The notes beneath the pieces were generated by a model. The model saw nothing but the letters and a program-made list of their open reading frames with translations, had not been told where the DNA came from and did no database searches. A stretch of DNA of 48,355 nt from a virus (taxonomy: Duplodnaviria; Caudoviricetes): IMG/VR virus record IMGVR_UViG_3300029224_000058, positions 1 to 48,355 of that record; one strand, given 5' to 3'. Position 1 is the stretch's first letter. Every line of letters begins with the position of its first letter. The position numbers and the translations under genes are program-made. This document shows, one piece after another, positions 7,770 through 45,477 of this stretch.

Positions 7770-8216
7770 ATGATAAGCCAAGAGCAAAGATTATTGATTG
7801 AAAAAGAGGGTGAAAACCTAAAGTTTAATGCGGAAAAACTGTTAAACGACAAGTACCGAGTTATTGTAAAAATCTCTGTTTTGAGAAAAAACGAAAACGT
7901 GAGCGATAAAGACTTAACGGGTTATATTATTAAAACAGTATGCTGGCATCAAGGTGTTGTTGAAAAAGACGTTTTATCGTGTAGTAGGAGAAAACAGCTT
8001 GTTAAGGCAAGGCAAATTATAGTTTTTTTAGCACGAAAGCACACTGAATTATCTTTTTTAAAAATAGGCGTTCAGTTGGGCAACAGGCATCACTCAACAA
8101 TATTATTTTCTTTAAAAAGAATAAACGACTACTTGTCTTTTGAAAAAGACTTAGTAAAAGAGGTGGAATACCTTGACAATAAAATCAATAATTTCGTTAC
8201 AAATGAAAACCTTTGA
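7770..8216 (+). CDS. DnaA C-terminal HTH domain protein
   Basis: SRR..LVKARQI..FLAR..T.LS..KIG..LG.RHHSTI resembles Bac_DnaA_C. Confidence 0.85.
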   Translation: MISQEQRLLIEKEGENLKFNAEKLLNDKYRVIVKISVLRKNENVSDKDLTGYIIKTVCWHQGVVEKDVLSCSRRKQLVKARQIIVFLARKHTELSFLKIGVQLGNRHHSTILFSLKRINDYLSFEKDLVKEVEYLDNKINNFVTNENL

Positions 8217-9397: not shown

Positions 9398-10003
9398 TTA
9401 GTTAATCGGTAAATGTTCTCTACAAATATTCGCACATTGTTCTAAAATCGTAGCCTTTTTAGAAGCAGCAGCAGCATTATAAGACTCGATAGCAGCAGCA
9501 TAAGTATAAGCGGCGGCGGCGGCGGCAGCGGAGGCAACAGTATAAGCATAAGTATAAGCGGCGGCGGCAGCAGTATAAGCGGCGGTGGCGGCAGCGGCGG
9601 CGGCAGCAACAGTATAAGCAGCATCATCATCAGCAGCAACAGTATAAGCAGCATCATCATCAGCAGCAACAGTATAAGCAGCAATAGCAGCACTGTCTAA
9701 CTCTTCTCGTGTTGCTTTACCTAACCCAAATTGCTCTGCTACTTCAACGGCTTTTTTACTACGTTCGTCAGCCATTAAATGAACAACTAATTTAGCACAG
9801 AGAGCTTTAGCTAAAGTAATTTGTCTTAAAGTATGCCACCCTTCTTTGCCCTGCATTTCACGTGCAATCCACAACATCCAATCACCTCTGTGGCACGTTT
9901 TCCAAACTTCTTGCAAAGTCTTGCCTTTAGCCCATTCTTTAGCCTCGGTACAAGCATTTAATTGTTCTTTGCTTAATAATTCCTCAAGTTCTTTTGCATT
10001 CAT
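9398..10003 (-). CDS. phage protein with an Ala/Tyr/Thr/Asp low-complexity tract
   Basis: RGDWMLW and DERSKKAVEVAEQF..G.AT N-terminal domain, then AAYTVAADDD repeats. Confidence 0.8.
   Translation of the reverse strand: MNAKELEELLSKEQLNACTEAKEWAKGKTLQEVWKTCHRGDWMLWIAREMQGKEGWHTLRQITLAKALCAKLVVHLMADERSKKAVEVAEQFGLGKATREELDSAAIAAYTVAADDDAAYTVAADDDAAYTVAAAAAAATAAYTAAAAAYTYAYTVASAAAAAAAYTYAAAIESYNAAAASKKATILEQCANICREHLPIN
9465..9692 (-). repeat. coding low-complexity repeat with exact 27-bp tandem units
   Basis: cagcagcaacagtataagcagcatcat repeated near 9603-9680, plus GCC runs. Confidence 0.9.
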
Positions 10004-14468: not shown

Positions 14469-14693
14469 TTATGAATTACGGGTTTTTTCAATTTCATCAA
14501 TTAATTTGTCTATATCGTAACTTTGAAATACAAAAAGGCAATCATCACTGATTTTTGTTTTATAAGGTTTTCCACCTAAACTTTTAGCACGTTTTTTAGC
14601 TAAGGATAGACCAGTTTCTTTTTCTCCTAAGAAATCTGTGTAAGGAAACACATATCTTGGGTTTCCGTTTACGTCTCTTTTTATTTTTTCCAT
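14469..14693 (-). CDS. small early phage protein
   Basis: KRDVNGNPRYV motif; downstream of a promoter. Confidence 0.7.
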   Translation of the reverse strand: MEKIKRDVNGNPRYVFPYTDFLGEKETGLSLAKKRAKSLGGKPYKTKISDDCLFVFQSYDIDKLIDEIEKTRNS

Positions 14694-15802: not shown

Positions 15803-16339
15803 CTATTTAGGCATAAAATACCATCCTTTTTGTCTCCAATTAATTGAATTGCATCTTTTAATGACAGTTTTAGGCGACAAAGCCAGTGATATAGCTGCTT
15901 GCGATGCAGTTGGATAGGTTTTATAATTGCAAATATACTTACCTTTATTCATAGGGTTGTTAGCTCCGATATTAGCTTTACTTATCAACCTCTTAGTTGC
16001 CTCCGTATGCTTCAATCCCTTTCTACCATTGCCTTTGTATAGTTCTTTACGGCTTATCCATTCGAGATTAAAGGCGTTGTTGTTAAGCGTGTTGCCGTCT
16101 TTATGGTTTACTATATTCTTATTTGGTTCGGGTTCGTTAAGCCAAGCGGTAGCTACTGCCCTGTGTACTTGCACGGTTTCAGTGATTGTATTTAAGCCTA
16201 CTTTTACGCTAAGGTTAACGGCGTGATACTGTTTACTTTTGTTATTTATAGTAAACTGCTTTACTGGACGATGCCCATTGGCTACCTCGCCTTTGATACT
16301 AACGGTATAGCCTTCGTAACCCTTTATTTTCTTAATCAT
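15803..16339 (-). CDS. HNH homing endonuclease (NUMOD4-HNH-NUMOD3-like)
   Basis: IKGYEGY.VS..G, VHRAVA, VNHKDGN..NN...NLEW, HTEATKRLIS. Confidence 0.9.
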   Translation of the reverse strand: MIKKIKGYEGYTVSIKGEVANGHRPVKQFTINNKSKQYHAVNLSVKVGLNTITETVQVHRAVATAWLNEPEPNKNIVNHKDGNTLNNNAFNLEWISRKELYKGNGRKGLKHTEATKRLISKANIGANNPMNKGKYICNYKTYPTASQAAISLALSPKTVIKRCNSINWRQKGWYFMPK

Positions 16340-16343
16340 AATG

Positions 16344-16375
16344 CAAAAATAATCCCAGCAAACCGAAAATACAAA
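16344..16375 (-). promoter_or_regulatory. Bacteroidota sigma-A promoter
   Basis: TTTG-N20-TATTTTTG on the minus strand. Confidence 0.75.
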
Positions 16376-16401
16376 CCGATATGTGAATTTACCCTTCTTT
16401 T

Positions 16402-16429
16402 TTGTCGCATAATCAACATTATGTTAAGT
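16402..16429 (+). other. XerC/XerD dif-like recombination site
   Basis: TTGTCGCATAA-TCAACA-TTATGTTAAGT versus E. coli dif GGTGCGCATAA-TGTATA-TTATGTTAAAT (11-6-11; XerD arm 10/11 identical). Confidence 0.85.
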
Positions 16430-16454
16430 AGGTATTTAAATACAGTGCATCAGC

Positions 16455-16467
16455 CCCTCCCCTACCC
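16455..16467 (-). other. two overlapping KOPS-like motifs (GGGNAGGG) oriented towards the dif-like site
   Basis: The minus strand reads GGGTAGGGGAGGG. Confidence 0.55.
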
Positions 16468-16703
16468 TACTGCAATAGGGTAAATCGATATTAAGCTATG
16501 CGAAAAATTGGATGTTTAAGTATAGTGTGGAGCGTTGGAAATAGCGAATCAAGTTTATTTTGGACAGAAAAAAGAAGTAGGGGGGGGTGTTTCCAAATTC
16601 GGGGGGAGTGCTGCGTACGGTGGGTGGTACTCCTTATATTTCCCCCACTTGTGGTTTATATTTCATTGTATTTATTCCTATACCTTTTCGTAAAAAAAAT
16701 GTT

Positions 16704-16760: not shown

Positions 16761-16830
16761 GAGCGGAACTTCGTGGCGAAGGGAATTGACTTTTAATCAG
16801 TTCAGGAGGGTTCGAGACCCTCCCCGCTTT
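16761..16830 (+). tRNA. atypical tRNA-Lys(UUU) or tRNA-like element
   Basis: Acceptor GAGCGGA/CCCGCTT, anticodon arm ATTGA-CTTTTAA-TCAGT, T arm GAGGG-TTCGAGA-CCCTC; short D arm; no encoded CCA. Confidence 0.75.
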
Positions 16831-16870: not shown

Positions 16871-17158
16871 ATGAAAAAGTATTGGGTAGTGTCTCAGTTT
16901 GAAATTTTTCTTATATTATCAAATAGGTAGGTTATTCGTACCTTTGTTTGTTAAAATTCATAAAACATTAAGAGTAACAAAATAAATAATTTTCCTGACG
17001 AAATCGTGTCGGGCGTATTAAATGAAATACATCAAGTGTACGCCCAAAGTGCGGGTATAATTGTTTTTCAGTATGTTGTTTTTTCCGACTAACTGAATTT
17101 AGGTGGTTATTTTATGGAATTATAAATGCTTAATATATTGCTTATACTAACCATTTTC

Positions 17159-17543: not shown

Positions 17544-19661
17544 ATGGATAGTAATTTCTTACAGGTAAAAACGGAGAAAGAGAAGAATGAGGATAATAAA
17601 AAGTGGTATAAGGACTGGATGGATTTCATTCTTTCACGATATAATACTCAAACATATCGAAACAACTATGGCGGTGTCGGTGGTTCATCATCTCCTTCAA
17701 CGGGTGTTCATTCAATGGATTCTGATGCTGACGGTTTTGCAACTTCTCCTATTGAGAGGATACGCAGGAATTACTCTTACTTCTCTAACACACAGGATAA
17801 TAAACAGTTTGGGTTTACGACAACCGACACCGATAATCTCCCACTACCTTATGGTCAGGCATGGCAAAGAGTGCCTAAAACGCAGCAGCTTATAAAAGAT
17901 TTGATAGGTGGCACTTTAAAAGCGATGAAGCACCAAGATTTATACGCTCAATCTATAAGCCCTTCTGCACAGAATGAAAAAACGAACCTACTTGGGCTAA
18001 CGAGGCTGAAAGTTGACAACAAAGAATTATATGACGACCTTAATGAGTTAGGATTATCATTTACCCCATTGGGGGGGGTAGAAGATGAATTTGAGACGAT
18101 TGACGAGGTAGAATCCTTTATCAATAACGACTATAAAACACCTGTTGAGGTATATGGTGAAGTGATAAAAGAGGAGATAATTGCTCGAAATCACTATATG
18201 GATTACTATAATGAGGTGTTAAAGGCGGCTACAATAGGTGGCATTACGGCGACAGAAATTGTGGTAAAAAATGGAAAGACATATTGGGAAACATACGAAC
18301 CTGATAAGATAATATGGGATAATTCAAAGGACAAGCAGCATCATAGAGATTTTAGATTTATAGGTCTTATAGAGGAGAAAACACCAACAGAAATTCTCGA
18401 CATATATTCCGATGAGTTATCAGAAGAAGAGATTAAAGAACTATCAGAACTAACAAATAGCAAGACTGTCTCTACAAGTCGTGAGCTATCATTATTCGGT
18501 GAAAGCAATAATATCCCCGTTGTTACTGTCGTAAAAGGATATTGGATGGCAATAAAAAAAGACGGTGATGAGACCTACGCTACATATTATAAAGCGGTTC
18601 AGATTGCTGATATAGCCACAGTAGGACAAGGCTTGGTGGAGAATTTGGTGGAGAATTTTGATGATAGGAGGATAGTATATCCCCCCGTAGTATTATGGAC
18701 TCCCGACATGGTGAATGGGTCTCTTAATAGCTTTACTGGCAGAATGATACACAACCAAGACCTTATAGATTTTTATAAAAATGAAATGAACACAAAAATA
18801 CTCTTATCGCATGGTAAGGTAGCATTGGTGATGGCAGAAAATCTTGGCTCAAGCACTATGATGGACATAGTAAATGACTGGAAAAGATATGGTCTATCTG
18901 TTATAAATAATGCTGATGGTGATGATATAGAGAGTTTAGGGAATAAGTTTGCCCAAGTATTTGATTTTTCAAACTCACAAATAATACAGTCCTTAGATGC
19001 TCTTTTAAAAAATGAGGAGCGTATGATGGAAGAGATTACGAGTGCCAACGAAATTACAATGGGACAGCAAAGGAATTATATAAGTCAGGGGGCGCAGCAG
19101 ACGACAATAGAACAAGCAAAAAAAGGAGTTTTTGGCTTTTTTGAAGGCTTTTTAAATATGGTAGAATCACTCGTGCAAATGAGTGTGAATATAGAAAAAA
19201 GCCTTATACCCGTTAATAATGAAAAATATGCTATTCCGATAGTAAGTAAATTTGGAGAGAATTTTTTAGAAAAAATAAAAGAAATATCACTTGAAGATTT
19301 AAGGATACGCTTTAAATACCTTGACCCGATTACCGAAGACAAAATGAATAGGATTATGAACTACATTGAGAGAGAGGCTTCTATCCCTAACAGCCTGATA
19401 ACACCCGAAGATTTTGCTAATGCTCTTTCCTTTAAAACAACGACACAGCTGCAAAAATACTTTAAGAAAATAACGAAACGTGGTGAGAAACAAAAAGAAA
19501 GAGCATTAGAGGCTCAAATGTTACAAGCAGAACAGGAGCAAATGGCAAAAGGAGAAAGCAATATGGCTGTTGCCAGTATTTCTGCCGATGCCTCACGTGA
19601 TGTAGCAGAAACAAAAGCAGAAGCCGATTTATTGGCAACAGCAATGAAACAAGGGCAATAG
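17544..19661 (+). CDS. portal protein
   Basis: 705 aa, first gene of the head module, helical with a Q/A-rich C-terminal tail. Confidence 0.8.
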   Translation: MDSNFLQVKTEKEKNEDNKKWYKDWMDFILSRYNTQTYRNNYGGVGGSSSPSTGVHSMDSDADGFATSPIERIRRNYSYFSNTQDNKQFGFTTTDTDNLPLPYGQAWQRVPKTQQLIKDLIGGTLKAMKHQDLYAQSISPSAQNEKTNLLGLTRLKVDNKELYDDLNELGLSFTPLGGVEDEFETIDEVESFINNDYKTPVEVYGEVIKEEIIARNHYMDYYNEVLKAATIGGITATEIVVKNGKTYWETYEPDKIIWDNSKDKQHHRDFRFIGLIEEKTPTEILDIYSDELSEEEIKELSELTNSKTVSTSRELSLFGESNNIPVVTVVKGYWMAIKKDGDETYATYYKAVQIADIATVGQGLVENLVENFDDRRIVYPPVVLWTPDMVNGSLNSFTGRMIHNQDLIDFYKNEMNTKILLSHGKVALVMAENLGSSTMMDIVNDWKRYGLSVINNADGDDIESLGNKFAQVFDFSNSQIIQSLDALLKNEERMMEEITSANEITMGQQRNYISQGAQQTTIEQAKKGVFGFFEGFLNMVESLVQMSVNIEKSLIPVNNEKYAIPIVSKFGENFLEKIKEISLEDLRIRFKYLDPITEDKMNRIMNYIEREASIPNSLITPEDFANALSFKTTTQLQKYFKKITKRGEKQKERALEAQMLQAEQEQMAKGESNMAVASISADASRDVAETKAEADLLATAMKQGQ

Positions 19662-24911: not shown

Positions 24912-26714
24912 ATGCCTTTAAAACAAATAAGAAATGGCGGGTATAAATACGCTCACATTCCTCCTGTTTTTAAAACAACCTTAGAAGCTCAAAGGTTTTG
25001 GGCTAATGAAAGAAAAAAGTGGATAGAAGGGTGGAGGGATTTAACGGGGCGACAATATCATTTCTTAACACAGGGTTATATTATGAGCGGTACGGGGATG
25101 GTAATGAAACCTCTTTACCGTTTTGATGATAGAGTTACGTTTGAAGCACTAACAAAGTCAGATACTACCTTTAGAGATACTGCTGTTGTGTCGGGTCGTG
25201 GTGTTGGAAAAACCGTTCTACTGTCCCACGACAGCATTTATAATTCCCATATTAAAATGGGATGCCGACAGTTGGTAACGGCTTGTGATTTAGGTCGTTT
25301 AGGAAAGTTCTTTAAAGATAAAATAGACGACATTGTTACCAATATGGATGTAGAAATTAGCCCTTCATTTCGTGGCGGAGGATATTCTAATAAGCAAGGA
25401 TACCCCGAAAGGGAGCTAAAATATGGGATAAAAATAAAAGGGCAAGAGAAAATAGTAAGTAGCCACATATTCGGAAGGCAGACAAGTCAATCCCAAAACG
25501 ACGTTACCAATCTATCAGGTTCACGGGGGGTACGCCTCACCATTGAAGAACCTTTTTTACACGCTTACCTTACAAAATTACTGGCAACGGGAAATGAACT
25601 TGTATCAGAGAACGGCGTAAGGATAGGGAGTATATTAATGGCAGGGACATTAGAAGAAGAGAGTCCTCAAAGTGCTATAAATGAGCTTGTAAATCTATTA
25701 GAGGTAAAAGATGAGATAGGGATGGAGGTTATTTTTCTGCCTTTCCATCACGGAATGAATTTAAGAGCTGATGGGACTTCTGATGTAGAGCAAGCAATCA
25801 GGGAATGGGAAGAAACGGCGGAAAGGTTTGATAAAATGGAGGATAAAACATTTTTATTAAACCACAAAAAAAATAGACCTCGCACCATCGCCGATGTTAT
25901 TACGCTGAGTACGGAAGGTGATTTGCCTCCTGAAGCAAAAGCAAATATTGATGAGCAAAAATTAAGGATTAAAAGTGAAAAGGTAAAAATTGATAGAATT
26001 ATTTTCGGGAAAACAGAAAAGAAATTAAGCAGTGAAGGGAAAATACTGATATTAGAACACCCCGTTGAAGGGGTAGAATATATTGCAGGCACTGACCCTA
26101 TTCAGATGATAAATACAGGGGGGACAAAGGGTTCTAAATTTGTTACAATAGTAATGAACCCTATAACTATGCAACCTGTTGCATTATATGCCGAGAGAAA
26201 TCTTAATGAAGATATTGTTGTCCATAATGTTGTTTCCCTATTAGAGTATTATAATGATGCTAAAAATATGGTAGAGGCAAATGCTGGACACGTATTCTTT
26301 AAGGCAATGATAGAATTGCACAAAACAAAACTTTTAGCACGGCAGCCTAAAAAAACGGGGCTGGCAATAAAAGAGAGTGCGGGGAAACCATTATGGGGCG
26401 TTCGTATTACCAGTTCAAAAGAGGCTACTAATATTTCACACGCACTATTAGTAAAATACTTTCTAAAATATACTAATTTAATATGGTTCGCAGACATTCT
26501 CGCTGATGTTAGCAACTATCCACAAGAGAACTCCGATTATATTGATGCCTTGAAATGCTGCTTAATATATATTAAGGAATTAGAGATAAGGAAACGAATA
26601 GCCAGTAAAAACAAAATGCAGAAAAAAGAAATTGTATCTATGTACACAGACCATACTGGAAGAAAAGTATATGGAAAAATAATAGTAGAAGTACCCACAA
26701 ATGAGAACAATTAA
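24912..26714 (+). CDS. terL: terminase large subunit
   Basis: Walker A SGRGVGKT, Walker B LTIEE, nuclease motifs AGTDP, VEAN, DYIDA. Confidence 0.9.
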   Translation: MPLKQIRNGGYKYAHIPPVFKTTLEAQRFWANERKKWIEGWRDLTGRQYHFLTQGYIMSGTGMVMKPLYRFDDRVTFEALTKSDTTFRDTAVVSGRGVGKTVLLSHDSIYNSHIKMGCRQLVTACDLGRLGKFFKDKIDDIVTNMDVEISPSFRGGGYSNKQGYPERELKYGIKIKGQEKIVSSHIFGRQTSQSQNDVTNLSGSRGVRLTIEEPFLHAYLTKLLATGNELVSENGVRIGSILMAGTLEEESPQSAINELVNLLEVKDEIGMEVIFLPFHHGMNLRADGTSDVEQAIREWEETAERFDKMEDKTFLLNHKKNRPRTIADVITLSTEGDLPPEAKANIDEQKLRIKSEKVKIDRIIFGKTEKKLSSEGKILILEHPVEGVEYIAGTDPIQMINTGGTKGSKFVTIVMNPITMQPVALYAERNLNEDIVVHNVVSLLEYYNDAKNMVEANAGHVFFKAMIELHKTKLLARQPKKTGLAIKESAGKPLWGVRITSSKEATNISHALLVKYFLKYTNLIWFADILADVSNYPQENSDYIDALKCCLIYIKELEIRKRIASKNKMQKKEIVSMYTDHTGRKVYGKIIVEVPTNENN

Positions 26715-36066: not shown

Positions 36067-39000
36067 ATGCCCGAAGAAAAAACATACCTAATCGGTACAG
36101 AGGTTTTTGATGTTCCCGATAATGAAGCAGAAGCGTTTTTAAAAGAAAACCCGAAAGCTATTGAGGCACAGTCATATACTATTGGAAAAGATACTTTTGA
36201 CGTTCCTATTTATGATGTTGAAGCGTTTTTAAAAGAAAACCCGAAAGCCAAAACATTAAAAAAAAAAGTTTCTGGAAAAGGTTTATTTGGTGGTTTTCCC
36301 GAATTGCAGGATGCTCTCAATATTAAAAGAAAAGATAAAAAAAATCCTAACTGGTTAGAAAAAAACACAGTAGTAACTACTAATAAAGAGCCGTTTTCAA
36401 TAGAACAAGGGATAAAAAATGCTACACAAGCGCAAACAGTAGAACAAATTGAAAGTGCCGTAAGAAAGAAATTAGCCCCAACTACTCCCCCTGAACTTTT
36501 AGAAGTCGAAGTTCAGAAATTCATTAAAGAGAATACTGGTCAACAAGAAAATAAAAGCCGTAAGGTAAAATTTACTGATATAGGTTTAAAACCCGATGAT
36601 TTTTTTACCCTATCACAAAAGGCAATATTTGATAAGCCATATATTAACCAAGAGGAAGTAACGGAGTATTCTGCTGAAATCCCTTCACTAAATGCTTTTG
36701 AAGAAAGTTCGCTAACACCTAAACTTACTCGTTCTATCCTGAAATTATTAAAAGAAAACCCTGAATACCGATTAGATATTCAAAAAGATGTTGATAAAAA
36801 GGGCAATAAACTTTCTGCCAGCGACCAAGAGAAATACATACGGTTAGCTACTTTTGAAACACCTGAAAATAAAGCAGCACAAGAAACAATAAATAATATT
36901 CAAAACTCACCCTTTTATGATGATGTAAAGCGATACTTTAAAGGGGCAAAAGAGCTAAATGAACAACAAAGGCTATTCAATCTAAAACACCCTGATTTTG
37001 AGGCTGCTAAAGCACAGTTTGAAGAGACTTTAGCACAGAACCCTAACGATGAAACAGCGTTAGCATATTTAGAAGAAATAGAGCAAAACCCTGATTATAT
37101 TGCCCTTCAAGAGGCTGCGATGGGGCTAACAGAAAGTGTAGAACAACATTTGCTTTCCGATGGGCAAAACAGGATAGAAGAGGCTATAAAAGAGTATGCT
37201 TTAGCAGCAAACCAAATATTTGAAACACAAGATGAATATCAAAACGCACTAAATAGCAGTAAAGCAATTCGAGAAAAAAGAGAATTAAAGTCTTATAAAA
37301 AAGCCCTCACCGAAGGTAAAATATTAAATGACCCTATGCTTAATCCGTTTGGAATGCGTGGTGATGATACTTATTCAAAATCAATACAAGATTTCAGCAA
37401 TAGTACTATTGATGTTATTGACGGAATAAGCAGAGTAACAGCAGAAGCATATAAATCTATTTCAGAAGCATTATTAGGCGCAGAAGGCGCACGCAAAGAC
37501 CGCCTTTTTAGAGGGGCAGATGTTTTTAGTAGTTGGGTAGGGGATAATTTAGATGAGCTAAAGTTTGAGAACGAACCAGCAGGTGATGTTTTAAATGAAG
37601 ACGGGACTGTTAATGTAGAAAATATTGTACGAGGAATTGCAGGGGCAACGCCACACTTTTTAGCAATAGCGGCGGGAAACCAATTAGCAGCAGCAAAAAT
37701 AGGAAAAGCATTAGGGATAGGGGCTAAAGGAGCGAATACTATTGCCACAGTAGGCGGAATATACGCAACTTCTTTTGCTCAATATTCTGATTTAGCAGAT
37801 GAAATGGGAATTACAGGCAGAAAAAAGGCTGCTTTTACTCACGGAATGGCACTAAACGAGGGGCTATGGGAAAGCATATTGCCTAACAACAAGGTGTTTA
37901 CCCGTAGCATAAGAAAGCAGCTTGTAAAAGACTTTGCTGAAAACATAGTAAAAGGCGGTAACAAAAAAGCATTAAAAGAGGCTATTAAAAATGCTGGTAG
38001 AGTAGTAGCACGTGCAGGGTTTGATGGCAGTCTTGAAGCGATAGAAGAAGTTGGCGTAAACTATACAAACCCATACTTAAACAAAATAGTAAACAGTTTA
38101 GGAAACAAGGGGCAAGATTTATCTACCGAAGCACCAACCTTAAACGAAAATCTAAATGCTATTGTACCTGCTTTCTTTTTAAGTGGTATTCCAAGTGCTA
38201 TTTCAAGTGCCTCAAGCCTAACGCTAAAGCAAAGTCAACTGATGCAGATAGCAGCCAGTGATATTGACGCTACTTTAGAATTAATAGAAAAAAGTGGTTT
38301 CTCAAAAGAGCAGAAGAAAAATTTAGCAGTAGTATTAGAAACATATAACGTTCTTAATGAGCAAATGCCTGATGTAGGTAATGGCAAAAAGGCATACGTT
38401 ATCCCTCGTATTACTAAGATTGAAGAACTAAAAGAACGGTCTCAAGACCCTGATAGAAATGAAGCATTAGTAAAAGCTGATGAACAGGAGATTAACACCT
38501 TGCAAAAGGAGGTTAATGATGCCTTATCAATGAGTAATAAGGACTTTAAGGGAATATACGATAGAGAAATCTCCGAAAGTTTAGAACAAAAAGAATCTGA
38601 AAGTATTGATAATAAAGAAGACACGACCCTTGACGATACTACTGAAAATGTAGAGGAAAAAATTGTTAATTATGAAAATATAGAATTTAAAGGAAGTCAA
38701 CAAAGTTCGAGTGATAACAGTATAGATTTTGAGTACAACCTAATGAAATCACAAGGTTTCGGATTAAGTTCAACAGGATATAGTCATTTTGACATGGGCA
38801 ATGGTATTAGTGGGATAATAAGAATAAAAGACCATGATGCTAATTCAGACTATATAGAAAATGATTTAGAAAACGAAGAAATAGGGGCTTATATTAATGT
38901 TGTCTCGATAGGAAAAGCAGACACTAATTTTAGTGGATATACATCGGAGAAACAATCCAATGAAGAGTTAACGGAATTATTTAAAAAATATGGCAAACCT

Positions 39001-42000
39001 ATAATAACTATACGAACTAAAGATGGTGATACTGTTAAAGATATTGCTGATAAAATTCAAAAGGAAAAAAGTGTAATTATTTCTGAAAGCACTAAAACAG
39101 GCGATAAAGTAGTCATTGATACCAGTGAAAAAGATACTGGTCCTGACCTTAACGAAAACATTGAGGTTGATGAGGGTAAGACTATCGACAAACCTGCGCC
39201 AATAAAGGAAAGCGAAGCTGGACCTGTCCCCCCTGCCCAAAATAACGAAAAAACTGGGATTAAGGAAAACGAGACTAAGTCTGAACCCTTGCAAACAAAG
39301 GAAAAAGCCCACCTGCCCACAATCACCCCCGAAGAAACAGAAAAATTAAACAAAGAAGCTGATAATTTAGGGTTTGGCAATATTTTTAAAGCTACTAATA
39401 GTGTTAATAAAAGGTTAGGTACTAACTATAAAGATTTTCGTGATATACCTAAAGAGGATTTACAAAAAGTTAGTAAGGAAAGGAAAGAGGGGGAGCTTGT
39501 TGACCAAAAAAGCGGAGAAATTATACCTAAAACTAATACCACTAAAAAAGAAGCCTCTGTTTCTAAAGAAAATCAAGAGGTATATGGCACTTTAAAAGAA
39601 GCTAATAAAATAGTTGTTGACGAAGATGGGAATATAAAAGAAGTTAAGCAAAACAGTGGATTTCCTTCACAGTTATATGAAGACATAAAGGCAATTATTG
39701 GAAGCGACAAATCATCATTGAATGAATACCTGAACATCAAAAATGATAACGGCAAATTTAAAGAGGAATTTGGTGATTGGGAAAACCGTATAATGAAGGA
39801 TTTTGGTAATTCAGGGAAAGAATATACCATTGTTCGGAAAGATATTGATGATAATAAATTTATTGATGTAAGGGAATATGAGAAGGGAAAGATTGTTATG
39901 GCTTTTAATAACGAAAAACTTGCCAGAAACAGAGATTTTAATAAAACTAAAGAAGAGTTTTCTGAGACTATATCAAACTCAGAAACAAAAGAATTGTTTA
40001 ATTCAACCGTTAATAAGTTACGAGATTTAAAACTCCACCTTATTCACATGAATTTGGGCGTAGAAGAAATTACATCGTTAAATGAAATCAAAAGAATAAA
40101 TGATGTTAATTTGGCAAAAGATTACTTTGGTGAACCTATGATTTTCATGCACGCAGGGGCAGAGGGAATTGAAAGTTTTAAAAAGCCCGATGACGTTGGT
40201 TATAAGCAAAACGATAACATTACTGGTTCAGCAGGGATATATTTCTCAAGAGATGTTAATCAGGCTGGAAAATACGCTAAAATAGAAGAGGGAAAACCTG
40301 CTAAAGGAAAAGATATTTATTATGTGTTTCTAAAAATTAAAAACCCTTATTATATCACCGACCCCTTTGCGCAGGCTCAATATAAGTTAACTGACAGCAA
40401 AACTTTAACAAAGGATGACGAGAATTCTTTAAAAGAATTAGGATATGACTCTATTATTTGGGATGAAGAAGAAGCCCCTAAGCATGAAGTAGTGGTATTT
40501 GACCCAAATCAAGTAGCTATTTTTGAGAACTTTAATTCAGAGGATTTGCAAAAAGTTAGTGAGCAAAGATTAGTAGAGAAAAAAGAAGCCACAGAACAAG
40601 TCATTGATGTATTTGAAGAAATAAGGGCAGAGAATGAACCCTCTAAAAAGCCTACACCGAAAAGAAAAAAGAAAACTCAAACAACTATTAATAAAAATGT
40701 TAAGAAGGATGCTAAGAAAAAGTTTGTAAGTGATGGTAAGGTTAAACAAAAAGAGTTTGATAATTGGAGAAATGAGACTATTTCAAAAGTAGATGAAGCG
40801 ATAAAAACAGTAATAGAGATTAACTTTGAAAAAGAAGGCGAAGGCTATGGTAGTGTAGGTGAATATGCTAAAGAGGACAATTCTATATTATCAAATGAAG
40901 ATGTTGTACGAGTTCTTAAAGAAAAAGGATTTGAAATTAAAAAAAGCGAAAAAGAAGTTGATATAATAACTATTAAAACTCCAAATGGGGAATATAATGT
41001 GCCAATAGAATCCCTACCTGAATTTAGAAAATCATTAGGAAAACTGACAAAAGAATATGGAAAAGGGAAAACGGAAGGGATACAGAAAGGGGCGCGAAAA
41101 GACGCATCAGAAGACTTTTATCAGCCTGAAAGTAAAGAAGAAGCAAAAGCAGAGCTTGAAATAGCGCAGCAAGTATTAGATAATGCGGGTAATAATAAAA
41201 AACTATCGGCAATAGCACAAAAACAAGTTGATTTTTATAAAAACTACTATGAAAACTACGAAAAGGTTGCCGCTAAAAACACGAACGATAACTTAACGAA
41301 AGAGTTTAATACGAGACTATTCCACAACAAAGAGATAACAGACTTCTACAATAATAATAAAGAAGAGTTAAAAACATATTTTGACATATATTCAGAACGT
41401 GATGTTTTTGAAATATCTGAACAGTTTTCAGAGACAGCTCCAAAAAGTATAGAAGATTTTGGATATATGTATTTAGCAGATAAGTTTATAAGAAATAAAA
41501 ACAAGTCTATATCCGAGTTAAAATCTGAAATAGAAAAATCACTTGTTGAAGCTAAAAAAGGCATTGAAAAATATGAAAGAGCCGATAAAAAGGGGTATAG
41601 AAAACAATCAACATCCTTTGATATAAATAAACTTCAAGAAGGATTAGATGATATTGATAAACAGAAGGATAGATTAGACATTTTAAATAAAGGAGCTAAA
41701 GAAATAAAAAGGTATGTTGAAATAAATAAACCCTCATTGTCTCAAAGGATTATTGACGGCTTAGAAAGTGTTAAAATAAGGACTGATAAAAAAGCATTAG
41801 GGATTATACCCCCGTTTAATATTGTGCCTGCCGTATGGAATACCTCAATAACTATAATTCAAAATGGTATTCGTGCAGGAAAAGTCATAAAAGATGCCAT
41901 TGAAGATGGTGTCGCCTATATAAAAGCAAATGTTAAAGGTGTTGATGAGAAAAAATTAAGAGACTTTTTCTATGAGAAAGCAAATGTTAAAGACACTGAA

Positions 42001-45000
42001 CCCACAGAAGAGGTAATTGAACCTAAACCTGAAAAAAAGGCAGCAGAAGAACCTAAAGAGGATAGAGTGTCGGGAATAAAAAAAGCCCTCGTTTCAGACG
42101 ATAAAGTTGAAGCCACCGACATAGAAAAACGCTCTACTGAACAAATGTTAGAAGCAGGGAAAAATGCTGTGGAAAGCGGTGATGTTAAACCTGCTATTAT
42201 AGTAAGTGCTATTCTAAAAGAACCTCGTGCATTACAAGCAATAGAAGTAGCGGCACTGGTTTATTACAAAACACAGTTAGACAATGTCTATGATACCTTA
42301 GCCGAAGACATCGAAGAATATAGAAAGGATAATGATACCGATAAACTTGTTTTAGCACAAGAGGAATTACACGTTTTAGAAAAAGCGATTGATGACTACC
42401 ATGAAATGTCGTTACTAACAGCTTATGAACAATCATTAGCTTTTAGATTACGTCAAATGCTATTAAGTAGTGAGTATAACCTACAATCACAAATTCGCAA
42501 GTATAAGTTAATTAACAACGGCGTTATTCCTCCTGATATTTTAGAGAAGTTTGAGCAGTACGATAAAGAGTTGAAATCTGTTCAGCAAGAGTTAAAAGAA
42601 TTGCGAGAAAAGCAAGAGATTGAAGAAGGGCAAGATGCTATTGACAATATCAAAGAAAGTGTTGACAGGCAGTATAAAAAACCCAAACAAAAATCAGTAT
42701 TAACAGAAAAAGAGCAAAAGCGCAAAAGAGAACTTAGTAAAAAGCTATTTGGTAGGTTTAATGATATTACCTCTTTCGCTCAACTAATTGCAGATAAAGA
42801 GTTTTATGAGTTTTCGGGACTTGTTATAAAAGAAACAAAAGGCGATTTTAATAGATTTGCTAAACAGATAACAGGTGCTGTGGGAAATGCTGTTAGAAAG
42901 TTCTTACCTGATTTATACAGAGACTTAGGCGGTAAAGGTGAAACTATTTTTGATAACACAAAAGTGGCTATCAAAAATGGGAAACTAATTATTCCTAATG
43001 CTATTATCCGTGATTTAGTAGCAGGGGGTGTTGACACTATTGAAACCTTAACTGATGCTATTTATAATGACATAAAAGATGAGTTTCCTAATATTACAAA
43101 AAGAAATATCCGTGATACTATCACAAATTACGGCAGGACAATAAACTTATCAAAAGAAGAAATTGATGTAAAAATCAGAGGAATAAAACGTATAGGGAAA
43201 CTATTTTCAGCACTTGAAGATGTTTTAAACAAAAAGCGTCCATTGCGAAGTGGTCTTCAAAGGGATAAGTTAAACGCCGAAGAGCGCAGACTGAAAAAGG
43301 CTATATCAGAGGGATTAAAAGATATTCCCCTAAGTGAAGAAGAAGTAAATGAGGCGTGGGCAACGGCTTTGGATAAGGTAAAATCAAGGCTAAGAAACCA
43401 AATTGAAGACCTACAAAACCAAATCGAAACAGGTGAAAAAACACCTAAGAAAAAAGGTATAGAATATGACAACGAGGCGAAACTATTACAAGCGGAAAGG
43501 GACGGGCTAAAACAAACGCTCGAGCAAACAGAGGGGAAACCCTCAATAAGTGATGAGCAACGCCTTAGAATGGCAATGAACTCCGTTGAAAGAGGGATAG
43601 AGGATTTAGAACGCCGTATTGCTGAAAATGATTTTAGCATAGGGGCAAAAAGACCGCCTATTAGTTCAGAAGAATTAACCGCCTTAAAAGAAAGAAGGGC
43701 GAGCCTACGTGATGTTTTTAAGAAAATGGAAACAGAAGCGGGAATAGTAGAGAAAAAAAGAATAGAGATTCGTAAACGAAATATCGATAAAAAAATAGCA
43801 GAATATCAGAGCAGGATTAAAAATAAAGACTATACCCAAAAGAAAAGAGCGAAACCACCTATTGACAAAGAAATTACCGCCAAAGAGGTTGAGCTTTTAT
43901 TAGTAAAAGAGAAGTTCGATGTAGAATCGGAGAAAATTAAACGTAAAAACAGGTCGTTAAGAGAAAAAGTATTTGAGATTTCTGCGGATATTTGGAATAT
44001 GACAAAATCATTAGTAACGACTTTAGATTTATCCGCACCACTAAGACAAGGGGCAGTAATAGGATATGCGAACCCAAAGATAGCGATTGCCTCTATGGTA
44101 GAAATGTTTAAGCAAATGGTTTCTCAAAAAGCAGCAGATAGTTTTTTAGCAGAAATGCGTACAAAAGAGGAATATTCTTTAATGCGTAAGTCTAAACTAT
44201 ACTTGGCAGAACCTTCATCAAAATTATCAGCAAAAGAAGAAGCGTTTATGTCAAATCTTGTCCATAAAATCCCACTGTTTGGAAAACTTGTAAAAGGCTC
44301 TGAAAGGGCATACACAGGATACCTTAATAAGATGCGTGTTGATGCTTTTGTTAAATTTTCTGAACAGCTAAAACGAGACGGATATGATGAAAACAAAGAT
44401 TTAGCCGCTTTTACAGCAGCAGCCAGTTTTGTGAACAACGCAACGGGAAGGGGAAACCTATTAGGCATGGAAGGGTCGGCAGTAGCCCTAAGTTTCTTTA
44501 TATTTTCACCCCGATATGTAGCCTCTCGGATAGCCCTTTTAAATCCATACAAGTATTATAAAATGCCTCCTCCACTAAGGAAAGAGGCTTTAAAATCAAT
44601 GGCTATTTTTACTGGTTCGTGGTATTTATTTAACAACCTGCTGATATTAGCAATACAATCATTTTTTGATGACGAAGAGGTTACAGTGGAAGAAGACCCT
44701 CGTAGTTCAGATTTTGGAAAGGTAAGGGCTGGCGACCTTAGATTTGATAACGCTGCGGGTATGCAGCAGCCCATACGTGTTATGTCGCAAATAGTAACAG
44801 GGCAAACAAAAAGCAGCCACACAGGAAATATAACAGAGTTAAATAGCGGAGGGTATTTTAGCCGCACACGAGGGGATGTTCTCTTTTCTTTTGGTCGTTC
44901 TAAACTTAGCCCCTCTTTTAGTTTTGTCGTAAACTGGTTAGATGGAGAAAATATCGTTGGAGAGCCGTTTGAAATAACAAATGAAATGGCGAGTTTAGTA

Positions 45001-45477
45001 ACACCATTATACTTATCCGATGCTAAAGAAATACTTGAAGAAGAAGGGGTAGGATTAGCCTCTATCGGTATTGGATTATCAGCATTTGGTGTTGGAATAC
45101 AGAGATATAGTGCATACGATGGTGTAGGTGAAGATGGGTTAGGAACTAAAACAGAAGAAGACTTAAAACTTCGCCGACTACTTAGGCAAAAACAAGTTTC
45201 TGTTACTAAAAAGAAAGAAGGCTCTATAAAAATAAAAGGTGAGGATATGACAGAGGAACAGTTTAAAACATTTTCTACTGTTAGGGGTGGTATTATCAAA
45301 GATTATTTATTAGATAATTATGATAAGTTAATGCAACTAAGTCCCGAAGATGTGCAGAAGAGGATTAAGAGAGTTAAGGCTTCTGCTACAAGAAGGGCGA
45401 AAATAAAGGCTAATAACCCTATATCAAAAAAGGAATTTCAACAGCTCCCTTCACGGTTAAAACAATTTATGAATTAG
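36067..45477 (+). CDS. giant polyvalent ejection protein with an ART-PolyVal-like ADP-ribosyltransferase module
   Basis: 3136 aa; FKEEFGDWE...GEPMIFMHAG...GIYFS...VFLKIKNP...GYDSII...HEVVVFDPNQ; C-terminal DLSAPLRQG/NNATGRG/DPRSSDFGK domain. Confidence 0.85.
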   Translation: MPEEKTYLIGTEVFDVPDNEAEAFLKENPKAIEAQSYTIGKDTFDVPIYDVEAFLKENPKAKTLKKKVSGKGLFGGFPELQDALNIKRKDKKNPNWLEKNTVVTTNKEPFSIEQGIKNATQAQTVEQIESAVRKKLAPTTPPELLEVEVQKFIKENTGQQENKSRKVKFTDIGLKPDDFFTLSQKAIFDKPYINQEEVTEYSAEIPSLNAFEESSLTPKLTRSILKLLKENPEYRLDIQKDVDKKGNKLSASDQEKYIRLATFETPENKAAQETINNIQNSPFYDDVKRYFKGAKELNEQQRLFNLKHPDFEAAKAQFEETLAQNPNDETALAYLEEIEQNPDYIALQEAAMGLTESVEQHLLSDGQNRIEEAIKEYALAANQIFETQDEYQNALNSSKAIREKRELKSYKKALTEGKILNDPMLNPFGMRGDDTYSKSIQDFSNSTIDVIDGISRVTAEAYKSISEALLGAEGARKDRLFRGADVFSSWVGDNLDELKFENEPAGDVLNEDGTVNVENIVRGIAGATPHFLAIAAGNQLAAAKIGKALGIGAKGANTIATVGGIYATSFAQYSDLADEMGITGRKKAAFTHGMALNEGLWESILPNNKVFTRSIRKQLVKDFAENIVKGGNKKALKEAIKNAGRVVARAGFDGSLEAIEEVGVNYTNPYLNKIVNSLGNKGQDLSTEAPTLNENLNAIVPAFFLSGIPSAISSASSLTLKQSQLMQIAASDIDATLELIEKSGFSKEQKKNLAVVLETYNVLNEQMPDVGNGKKAYVIPRITKIEELKERSQDPDRNEALVKADEQEINTLQKEVNDALSMSNKDFKGIYDREISESLEQKESESIDNKEDTTLDDTTENVEEKIVNYENIEFKGSQQSSSDNSIDFEYNLMKSQGFGLSSTGYSHFDMGNGISGIIRIKDHDANSDYIENDLENEEIGAYINVVSIGKADTNFSGYTSEKQSNEELTELFKKYGKPIITIRTKDGDTVKDIADKIQKEKSVIISESTKTGDKVVIDTSEKDTGPDLNENIEVDEGKTIDKPAPIKESEAGPVPPAQNNEKTGIKENETKSEPLQTKEKAHLPTITPEETEKLNKEADNLGFGNIFKATNSVNKRLGTNYKDFRDIPKEDLQKVSKERKEGELVDQKSGEIIPKTNTTKKEASVSKENQEVYGTLKEANKIVVDEDGNIKEVKQNSGFPSQLYEDIKAIIGSDKSSLNEYLNIKNDNGKFKEEFGDWENRIMKDFGNSGKEYTIVRKDIDDNKFIDVREYEKGKIVMAFNNEKLARNRDFNKTKEEFSETISNSETKELFNSTVNKLRDLKLHLIHMNLGVEEITSLNEIKRINDVNLAKDYFGEPMIFMHAGAEGIESFKKPDDVGYKQNDNITGSAGIYFSRDVNQAGKYAKIEEGKPAKGKDIYYVFLKIKNPYYITDPFAQAQYKLTDSKTLTKDDENSLKELGYDSIIWDEEEAPKHEVVVFDPNQVAIFENFNSEDLQKVSEQRLVEKKEATEQVIDVFEEIRAENEPSKKPTPKRKKKTQTTINKNVKKDAKKKFVSDGKVKQKEFDNWRNETISKVDEAIKTVIEINFEKEGEGYGSVGEYAKEDNSILSNEDVVRVLKEKGFEIKKSEKEVDIITIKTPNGEYNVPIESLPEFRKSLGKLTKEYGKGKTEGIQKGARKDASEDFYQPESKEEAKAELEIAQQVLDNAGNNKKLSAIAQKQVDFYKNYYENYEKVAAKNTNDNLTKEFNTRLFHNKEITDFYNNNKEELKTYFDIYSERDVFEISEQFSETAPKSIEDFGYMYLADKFIRNKNKSISELKSEIEKSLVEAKKGIEKYERADKKGYRKQSTSFDINKLQEGLDDIDKQKDRLDILNKGAKEIKRYVEINKPSLSQRIIDGLESVKIRTDKKALGIIPPFNIVPAVWNTSITIIQNGIRAGKVIKDAIEDGVAYIKANVKGVDEKKLRDFFYEKANVKDTEPTEEVIEPKPEKKAAEEPKEDRVSGIKKALVSDDKVEATDIEKRSTEQMLEAGKNAVESGDVKPAIIVSAILKEPRALQAIEVAALVYYKTQLDNVYDTLAEDIEEYRKDNDTDKLVLAQEELHVLEKAIDDYHEMSLLTAYEQSLAFRLRQMLLSSEYNLQSQIRKYKLINNGVIPPDILEKFEQYDKELKSVQQELKELREKQEIEEGQDAIDNIKESVDRQYKKPKQKSVLTEKEQKRKRELSKKLFGRFNDITSFAQLIADKEFYEFSGLVIKETKGDFNRFAKQITGAVGNAVRKFLPDLYRDLGGKGETIFDNTKVAIKNGKLIIPNAIIRDLVAGGVDTIETLTDAIYNDIKDEFPNITKRNIRDTITNYGRTINLSKEEIDVKIRGIKRIGKLFSALEDVLNKKRPLRSGLQRDKLNAEERRLKKAISEGLKDIPLSEEEVNEAWATALDKVKSRLRNQIEDLQNQIETGEKTPKKKGIEYDNEAKLLQAERDGLKQTLEQTEGKPSISDEQRLRMAMNSVERGIEDLERRIAENDFSIGAKRPPISSEELTALKERRASLRDVFKKMETEAGIVEKKRIEIRKRNIDKKIAEYQSRIKNKDYTQKKRAKPPIDKEITAKEVELLLVKEKFDVESEKIKRKNRSLREKVFEISADIWNMTKSLVTTLDLSAPLRQGAVIGYANPKIAIASMVEMFKQMVSQKAADSFLAEMRTKEEYSLMRKSKLYLAEPSSKLSAKEEAFMSNLVHKIPLFGKLVKGSERAYTGYLNKMRVDAFVKFSEQLKRDGYDENKDLAAFTAAASFVNNATGRGNLLGMEGSAVALSFFIFSPRYVASRIALLNPYKYYKMPPPLRKEALKSMAIFTGSWYLFNNLLILAIQSFFDDEEVTVEEDPRSSDFGKVRAGDLRFDNAAGMQQPIRVMSQIVTGQTKSSHTGNITELNSGGYFSRTRGDVLFSFGRSKLSPSFSFVVNWLDGENIVGEPFEITNEMASLVTPLYLSDAKEILEEEGVGLASIGIGLSAFGVGIQRYSAYDGVGEDGLGTKTEEDLKLRRLLRQKQVSVTKKKEGSIKIKGEDMTEEQFKTFSTVRGGIIKDYLLDNYDKLMQLSPEDVQKRIKRVKASATRRAKIKANNPISKKEFQQLPSRLKQFMN
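36130..36248 (+). repeat. 29-bp exact direct repeat, 90 bp apart (30-aa tandem N-terminal domain)
   Basis: gaagcgtttttaaaagaaaacccgaaagc at 36130 and 36220. Confidence 0.9.
39453..40560 (+). repeat. 22-bp direct repeats (1 mismatch) bracketing the ART module
   Basis: agaggatttacaaaaagttagt at 39453-39474 and agaggatttgcaaaaagttagt at 40539-40560. Confidence 0.9.

Follow-up and report, generated by a model that had tools for sequence, protein, structure and literature searches.

The window, that is, the whole 48,355-bp stretch of DNA analysed here, was a linear virus record that was 66% complete, and the sequencing runs containing its sequence were seawater metagenomes from one study. Its genes encoded DnaB, RecT, an exonuclease, a portal, a crAss-type muzzle protein and a probable TerL. 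The homologue of the last protein in G001, a phage genome sharing virion genes with the window, matched a TerL PHROG (E 1.7e-7); some of the Atlas clusters nearest to the window protein carried Terminase_6 in 10-99% of their members, and the top three had no common family. A Shine-Dalgarno-like motif was found in 3 of the 39 window genes, an A occupied position -3 in 22 of 39, and promoter-like sequences of the form TTG..TAnnTTTG lay upstream of several leftward genes. Few Shine-Dalgarno motifs, A at -3 and promoters of this form, which we take to be signatures of a Bacteroidota host, suggest that the phage infects a member of this phylum. A dif-like site accompanied by a pair of G-rich motifs was located at the point of divergence between a leftward block of small genes, with the HNH gene first, and a rightward virion block that began with the portal gene at 17544 (Table 1). 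The dif-like site was non-coding, lying between the start of the HNH gene (16339) and the portal block and overlapped by short unsupported ORFs only. On its XerC side, a promoter-like sequence and the HNH gene start were found within 63 bp.

Table 1. Coordinates of the dif-like site, its motif pair and the surrounding features in the window
Feature	Position	Strand	Remark
XerC-type arm TTGTCGCATAA	16402..16412	+	Direct read; arm class also in bacterial genomes
Central region, TCAACA	16413..16418	+	6 bp; direct read
XerD-type arm TTATGTTAAGT	16419..16429	+	Equals the arm of several Bacteroidota dif candidates, e.g. L151, L157, L159
Gap from XerD arm to motif pair			25 bp
KOPS-like octamer GGGGAGGG	16455-16462	-	Aimed at the XerD arm
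KOPS-like octamer GGGTAGGG	16460-16467	-	Overlaps GGGGAGGG; aimed at the XerD arm
Conserved 16-mer	16454..16469	-	Spans the overlapping KOPS-like motif pair (both AGGGNAGGG); predicted FtsK loading site
HNH/NUMOD3 endonuclease gene	15803..16339	-	First of the leftward small-gene block, XerC side
Portal protein gene	17544..19661	+	Opens the rightward virion block; XerD arm 1.1 kb away
Probable terminase large subunit gene	24912..26714	+	8.5 kb from the site; product 52% identical to G001 protein
G-rich non-coding motif	16580..16633	+	Possibly a packaging or terminus signal (inferred)
tRNA-like element, TTT anticodon loop	16761..16830	+	23.4 bits, E 0.11, below the Rfam cut-off; cloverleaf z -3.9

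Direct reading confirmed the original prediction of an 11-6-11 dif-like site with two overlapping minus-strand octamers aimed at its XerD arm. The site was a pseudo-palindrome in which arms of both the XerC and the XerD type were present (16402-16429), and together with the motif pair it formed a stretch of 68 bp. The pattern CATAA-N6-TTATGTTAA had a single exact match in the window, which was this site, and the runner-up had 2 mismatches; within the 66% of the genome present the dif-like site was single-copy. The octamer GGGNAGGG was commoner in the window than expected by chance (8 copies versus a shuffle mean of 2.3), so one copy alone says little. In 5000 shuffles of the region 16340-16700 that preserved its dinucleotides, a single copy in the correct orientation turned up within 100 bp of the arm 0.6% of the time, and two oriented copies never did. 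The degenerate octamer AGGGNAGG fitted both motifs of the pair, which were its sole minus-strand copies in the window; of its three other copies, one was directed at the site and the other two away from it. Inside the T-arm of the tRNA-like element lay a third minus-strand GGGNAGGG (16818-16825). A G-quadruplex at the motif was rejected because there were three G-tracts in the window and merely two in many other cassettes, and a hairpin was rejected because the region folded no better than its shuffles (z -0.5). A 7-bp inverted repeat (16463-16482) overlapped the outer motif, and a 9-bp inverted repeat (16387-16395 and 16477-16485) bracketed the dif-like site and the motifs; neither was general among the cassettes.

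Comparison with host dif sites had been proposed as a check. Bacteroidota dif candidates, including that of G002, a Lacibacter genome, had the same XerD arm as the window, and their XerC arms mostly ended in CCTATAA or CGTATAA (58 of 201 genomes matched); the supplementary tables of predicted dif sites in PMC3025954 may be relevant to a comparison of host spacers. The exact dif core of the window occurred in 0 of 401 Bacteroidota genomes and in 14 of 401 at one mismatch. The 12 one-mismatch genomes that were inspected contained four host-like sites with the spacer TTAACA, one base from that of the window, and one plausible site with TCAACA itself (G201), a spacer that was absent from the genome sites listed (0 of 121 and 0 of 71). 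An arm-pattern search of bacterial genomes yielded 121 sites in the 120 listed of about 400 stretches, and within up to 1.5 kb of these listed matches GGGNAGGG was directed at the site in 62 cases and away from it in 8, as a chromosomal dif would show.

Guide motifs were then sought among 38,642 degenerate octamers across six Bacteroidota genomes, over 100 kb to either side of dif. The top octamer for polarity toward dif was AGGGNAGG, with 71 copies toward and 8 away. Inside genes pointing away from dif its ratio was 29:1, compared with 11:17, 12:13 and 17:16 for G-rich controls, and the bias was therefore independent of gene direction. In a held-out set of five genomes, with 40 kb per side of dif, the polarity was 33:5 overall and 11:1 in opposed genes. 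A clear GC-skew switch at the site was seen in 7 of the 11 genomes; in G066, G170, G012 and G002 it was weak or absent. Since the dif candidate of G002 showed no switch, the host statistics were also computed without it (held-out polarity 26:3). The fraction pointing toward dif, in dif-flanking regions of 80-200 kb per genome, was 0.90 in the discovery set and 0.87 in the held-out set (0.90 without G002). The densities of 79 copies in 1.2 Mb and 38 in 0.4 Mb of the host dif region exceeded one per 40 kb, the minimum among the KOPS criteria in the excerpts of PMC3384302. On this statistical evidence, AGGGNAGG is a candidate KOPS-like motif around Bacteroidota dif. The original prediction had left it doubtful that Bacteroidota FtsK reads GGGNAGGG, a doubt that is partly answered; the related octamer AGGGNAGG behaved like a KOPS, while GGGNAGGG itself was weaker, at 45:13 (0.78) in the discovery set and 26:8 (0.76) in the held-out set. 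The T and G variants of the host motif were the most polar (42:2 versus 62:11), a difference that was not significant (p 0.13). A compact arrangement of dif with a close motif was found in 2 of the 401 Bacteroidota genomes, both times among ordinary host genes. No description of a Bacteroidota KOPS was found in the full-text literature, largely open-access, and no paper was found on KOPS, GGGNAGGG and Bacteroidetes together; AGGGNAGG is a candidate KOPS of the phylum. The octamer AGGGNAGA was also polar toward dif in Bacteroidota chromosomes (96:16 and 40:7; L180-L239 and L376-L395), which suggests a host motif family AGGGNAG(A/G).

The same arrangement recurred in other phages. In a pattern test on IMG/VR, the dif core was combined with a motif within 12-42 nt that pointed either toward it or in reverse; the toward form matched about 180 stretches, of which 119 were listed, and the reversed form 17 (68 versus 12 after dereplication). 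In a separate set of 119 stretches matching the bare 16-mer, it was accompanied by a perfect dif core within 120 nt, and aimed at its XerD arm, in 45 (24 of 77 dereplicated), and each of the three other geometries occurred in none. Similar results were obtained with an unselected IMG/VR sample of Bacteroidota-type dif sites (120 listed of about 660 stretches), of which 78 were dereplicated and had full flanks. Within 100 nt on the XerD side of these 78 sites, AGGGNAGG pointed toward the site in 19 and away in 2; on the XerC side the counts were 1 and 0, and two control octamers gave 0-2 in every geometry. The motif was absent within 100 nt of the other 59 sites. With 19 in this geometry against 0-2 in the other three and dozens of dissimilar contigs carrying the arrangement, the expectation that phages would conserve dif together with an oriented motif was borne out. 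In the full-text literature, largely open-access, we found no account of tailed phages with a dif-plus-KOPS cassette.

Among 60 dereplicated cassettes, the motif was tandem in 28, the spacer took 33 different forms, of which those of 17 cassettes were also seen at host dif candidates, and the distance between dif and motif varied from about 10 to 40 nt. Helical phasing of this distance was unsupported (p 0.33 at 10.5 bp; the nominal p of 0.02 at 12-13 bp was uncorrected for six periods). In 85 of 88 cases the phage motif had T or G at its variable base, where in hosts all four bases were about equally frequent; this preference could reflect either a shared ancestry of the cassettes or a different binding protein. 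The flanks of the cassette loci had almost no proteins in common with the window, and a distant TerL match to the window was found in 1 of 37 cassette records, so the module was not inherited together with the genes of this phage. Outside the cassette, in 8 circular cassette genomes, AGGGNAGG pointed toward dif 5 times and away 15 times, which shows that the signal was local and not part of a genome-wide bias. Viral matches to the exact arms (L001-L016) had no GGGNAGGG within 250 bp in any of the 16 cases; 11 of these 16 had terminase genes of unrelated tailed phages close by, and one belonged to an inovirus.

A gene-context scan of 116 chosen ORFs from 49 dereplicated loci showed that the cassette was usually beside packaging genes. 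A terminase was recognised within 3 kb in 19 of the 49 loci; in 12 of these it lay on the XerC side and in the remaining 7 on the XerD side, and the direction of the motif therefore followed dif and not the terminase. The window had been described as free of integrase, and no tyrosine recombinase (PF00589) was found in it, a result that holds for the 66% of the genome present; among the larger cassette records a tyrosine recombinase was found in 6 of 31, and in 3 of 17 of those at least 90% complete. No FtsK-gamma domain (PF09397) was found in the same 66%, and none scored over the cut-off in the window or in 32 cassette records. Neither a serine resolvase nor ParA was found in 18 cassette genomes. 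In both of the two proviruses examined, the phage's own integrase was at one end and the cassette lay whole in the interior. Half of the site joined to host DNA, the read-out proposed for integration, was not seen in the Logan contigs of three runs from one study, and no joint or loose end of any kind was present at the site in these contigs, which drop rare forms and cannot show genome ends. Contig ends were mildly enriched near the cassettes on both sides, with 7 within 150 nt versus 2.1 expected in a set that was not dereplicated. In one cassette phage (G427), a short tyrosine-recombinase-like gene (L308:4032-4670) lay between the cassette and terL. Two cultured, T7-like Ralstonia phages (p2137 and 10RS306A, Serkorvirus) had a near-perfect dif-like site near the start of the record (L638:125-152 and L639:280-307). 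This dif-like site was just past the terminase end of the gene order, had no GGGNAGGG nearby and may be inside the terminal repeat.

Cultured relatives of the window phage were scarce. INPHARED gave no match for the region, the portal or TerL, the DnaB matches among cultured phages were all below 40%, and the proteins neighbouring the cassettes had no close cultured isolate. A portal search without alignment found nothing, and alignment-based portal searches found only G001 (complete; portal 53%) and G446 (90% complete). Both genomes had homologous virion genes and neither a dif core nor a cassette; the module is therefore dispensable in this lineage. Conservation of the module failed in these two relatives and was found in many other phage contigs. 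No prophage relative was found in the 401 Bacteroidota genomes, in which there was one marginal match (E 9e-4).

The geometry of the cassette can be compared with the action of FtsK in E. coli. According to the excerpts of PMC2673442, FtsK activates recombination from the XerD side only, and a triple KOPS raised recombination more than tenfold when less than 114 bp of DNA flanked the XerD side. FtsK-gamma first binds KOPS and loads the motor, and the same surface afterwards serves to activate XerD (excerpts of PMC5052618). FtsK is a fast translocase able to displace DNA-bound proteins (excerpts of PMC5357621) that is normally active at the division septum (excerpts of PMC11724359). The KOPS-type geometry originally proposed for the window agrees with these in vitro needs of E. 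coli FtsK, namely loading on the XerD side and help from KOPS on short DNA (excerpts of PMC2673442). Because the cassette reproduced this geometry, we infer a local loader. Host FtsK would load at the motif pair (16454-16469), beside the XerD arm, and would then activate host XerCD on a synapse of two copies of the phage site, so that phage copies would recombine with each other and not with the chromosome. The predicted outcome is the closing of a terminally redundant genome into a circle or the cutting of multimers into single circles; terminal redundancy with circularisation, or multimer resolution, is suggested by the position of the cassette near packaging genes. The least certain step is that the site would be near a physical DNA end, where FtsK would load poorly without a dedicated motif. 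Of the models considered we favour this one, in which a local loader lets FtsK activate host XerCD where two phage copies of the site pair; in our judgement it is somewhat better than an even bet, and the motif quite probably serves host FtsK. The 59 of 78 viral dif sites without a motif and the 16 exact-arm viral matches without one count against this model, as do the two cassette-less relatives, the preference of the phage motif for T or G at the variable base, the mild and two-sided enrichment of contig ends, the G-rich motif seen in 5 of 39 loci, the host-type spacers of 17 cassettes and the route of phage DNA to septal FtsK, which has no explanation in it. The cassette is a real and widespread module with a predicted function.

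Alternatively, the site might be an attP at which XerCD and FtsK would integrate the phage into host dif and excise it again, like the gonococcal genomic island. This use, which the original prediction had included, fared poorly and now appears unlikely. The arms match Bacteroidota dif candidates, the spacer is within one base of the TTAACA of the four host-like sites and equals that of the plausible G201 site, and the host-type spacers of 17 of the 60 phage cassettes would permit integration. An integrase was absent from 14 of the 17 cassette genomes at least 90% complete, and use of dif has been reported for small ssDNA phages of Bacteroidota (excerpts of PMC3091885 and PMC9719478). However, two proviruses had been integrated by their own integrase with the cassette intact, the two compact arrangements in the 401 Bacteroidota genomes were both surrounded by host genes, and these genomes contained neither the exact core nor, apart from the marginal match, a prophage relative; the contigs of the one study showed no joint at the site. 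Equally doubtful is a reading in which XerCD uses the dif-like site while the tandem serves a different binding protein, for instance a terminase subunit, a phage FtsK-gamma-like domain or a host factor other than FtsK. The phage motif was tighter than that of the hosts, with its T or G at the variable base and conserved flanks, about two thirds of the dereplicated bare 16-mer matches had no dif within 120 nt, some of them in terminus-like G/C-rich regions, and an FtsK-gamma domain has been published for the small terminase of a Bacillus phage (excerpts of PMC8190038). Against another binder, the motif kept its orientation to the XerD arm whichever side the terminase was on, no FtsK-gamma domain exceeded the cut-off in the window or the 32 records, the unphased spacing of about 10 to 40 nt is as for a translocating motor, and the T and G variants tended to be the most polar in hosts too.

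The cassette might also act as a tether or decoy, capturing XerCD and FtsK to place or move phage DNA or to disturb chromosome segregation, with recombination incidental. Such a role would draw on the ability of the FtsK translocase to displace proteins from DNA (excerpts of PMC5357621), and the local cassette without genome-wide motif bias and the variable spacer (33 forms in 60 sites) are in keeping with it; but the variable spacer is equally expected for self-recombination, and the strict XerD-side, toward-only geometry matches a need of recombination activation and not of a decoy, which makes this role less probable than either of the two preceding readings. A G-run that arose by chance or is vestigial, next to a dif-like site that is itself real or decayed, would be compatible with the over-representation of GGGNAGGG in the window and with the two relatives that lack the module. 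Such an origin is very improbable, because the 16-mer recurred on the same side and in the same orientation in dozens of dissimilar contigs, because no local shuffle of the 5000 produced two copies, and because of the geometry counts of the bare 16-mer and of the unselected sample.

The loxP/Cre system of the tailed phage P1 reportedly circularises the incoming genome. Like the predicted local loader, it pairs a tailed phage with a recombination site that joins phage DNA to itself; P1, however, encodes Cre and has a genome-wide KOPS bias (excerpts of PMC11724359), whereas here the recombinase would be that of the host and the guide is local. With chromosomal dif and the XerCD/FtsK-KOPS system of E. 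coli, the cassette has in common a 28-bp 11-6-11 site, a polar G-rich octamer directed toward it and an activation expected from the XerD side (excerpts of PMC5357621 and PMC2673442). The chromosomal guide consists of dozens of KOPS over both replichores according to the same excerpts, whereas the phage guide consists of a single tandem at a distance of 25 bp from the arm, and the best-fitting host octamer here was AGGGNAGG and not GGGNAGGG. The FtsK-dependent xrs of megaplasmids such as R27 is likewise an extrachromosomal 28-bp Xer site, presumed to act on the DNA of its own element under FtsK control, but it belongs to large plasmids with a replicon-wide KOPS bias (excerpts of PMC11724359); the cassette phages were 30-80 kb, ParA was absent from all 18 genomes, and the 5 toward and 15 away in the eight circular genomes did not converge on the site. 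The plasmid sites cer and psi also direct host XerCD to the element's own multimers; they do so without FtsK and use accessory DNA of about 200 bp on the XerC side (excerpts of PMC11724359), whereas the conserved extra element of the cassette was on the XerD side. A phage-borne dif-like site, usually without integrase, is shared with the IMEX (CTXphi, VGJphi, TLCphi and GGI), the dif-targeting microviruses and the PhiCjT23-like phages of Bacteroidota (excerpts of PMC5357621, PMC3091885, PMC9719478 and PMC12715192, the last of which contain no mention of KOPS). The IMEX phages are tailless, are split at host dif and in several cases have a degenerate XerD arm according to these excerpts. Here, both arms were host-like, the site had its own oriented motif, and no hybrid dif at both ends was seen, since the two proviruses kept the whole cassette and the 401 genomes yielded no relative.

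Descriptions of Xer hijacking by phages concern small tailless ones with integration at dif. An FtsK loading site of their own in mostly integrase-free tailed phages would, if true, represent a different use of the division machinery, that is, the processing of phage DNA during infection; ftsK, xerC and xerD would then be host factors for lytic growth, and the cassette would correspond in nature to the engineered triple-KOPS-dif substrate. In its broadest form, the proposal is that many Bacteroidota tailed phages carry a portable dif with a loader at the genome end, that host FtsK and XerCD circularise their DNA or process concatemers, and that AGGGNAGG is the KOPS of the phylum; this we put forward tentatively, as somewhat more likely wrong than right.

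Several further features were noted in the window. The G-rich non-coding motif (16580-16633; also L029:13790-13870) had a similar counterpart in non-coding DNA of G001, the relative without a cassette, and 4 other loci had one past their cassette; with 5 of 39 loci including the window, it was rejected as a general partner of the cassette. The tRNA-like cloverleaf, which was not called by ARAGORN and was followed by a T-run, might be a tRNA-Lys that has degenerated, a terminator or what is left of an att site. A short non-coding stretch (16881-16978) with a TAnnTTTG promoter-like motif was common to higher-depth contigs of all three runs and is possibly a regulatory element common to co-occurring phages. 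A 3136-aa protein (36067-45477) had no Pfam or PHROG match; its homologue in G001 has an LPD38 domain, and it is probably an ejected virion protein. The first ORF contained 12-bp tandem repeats (1-168), and an Ala/Tyr-rich repeat gene was located at 9465-9692. A protein with the C-terminal HTH of DnaA was encoded at 7770-8216, and a homologue of the staphylococcal phage terminal-repeat protein TreK (14469-14693) was found among the leftward genes.
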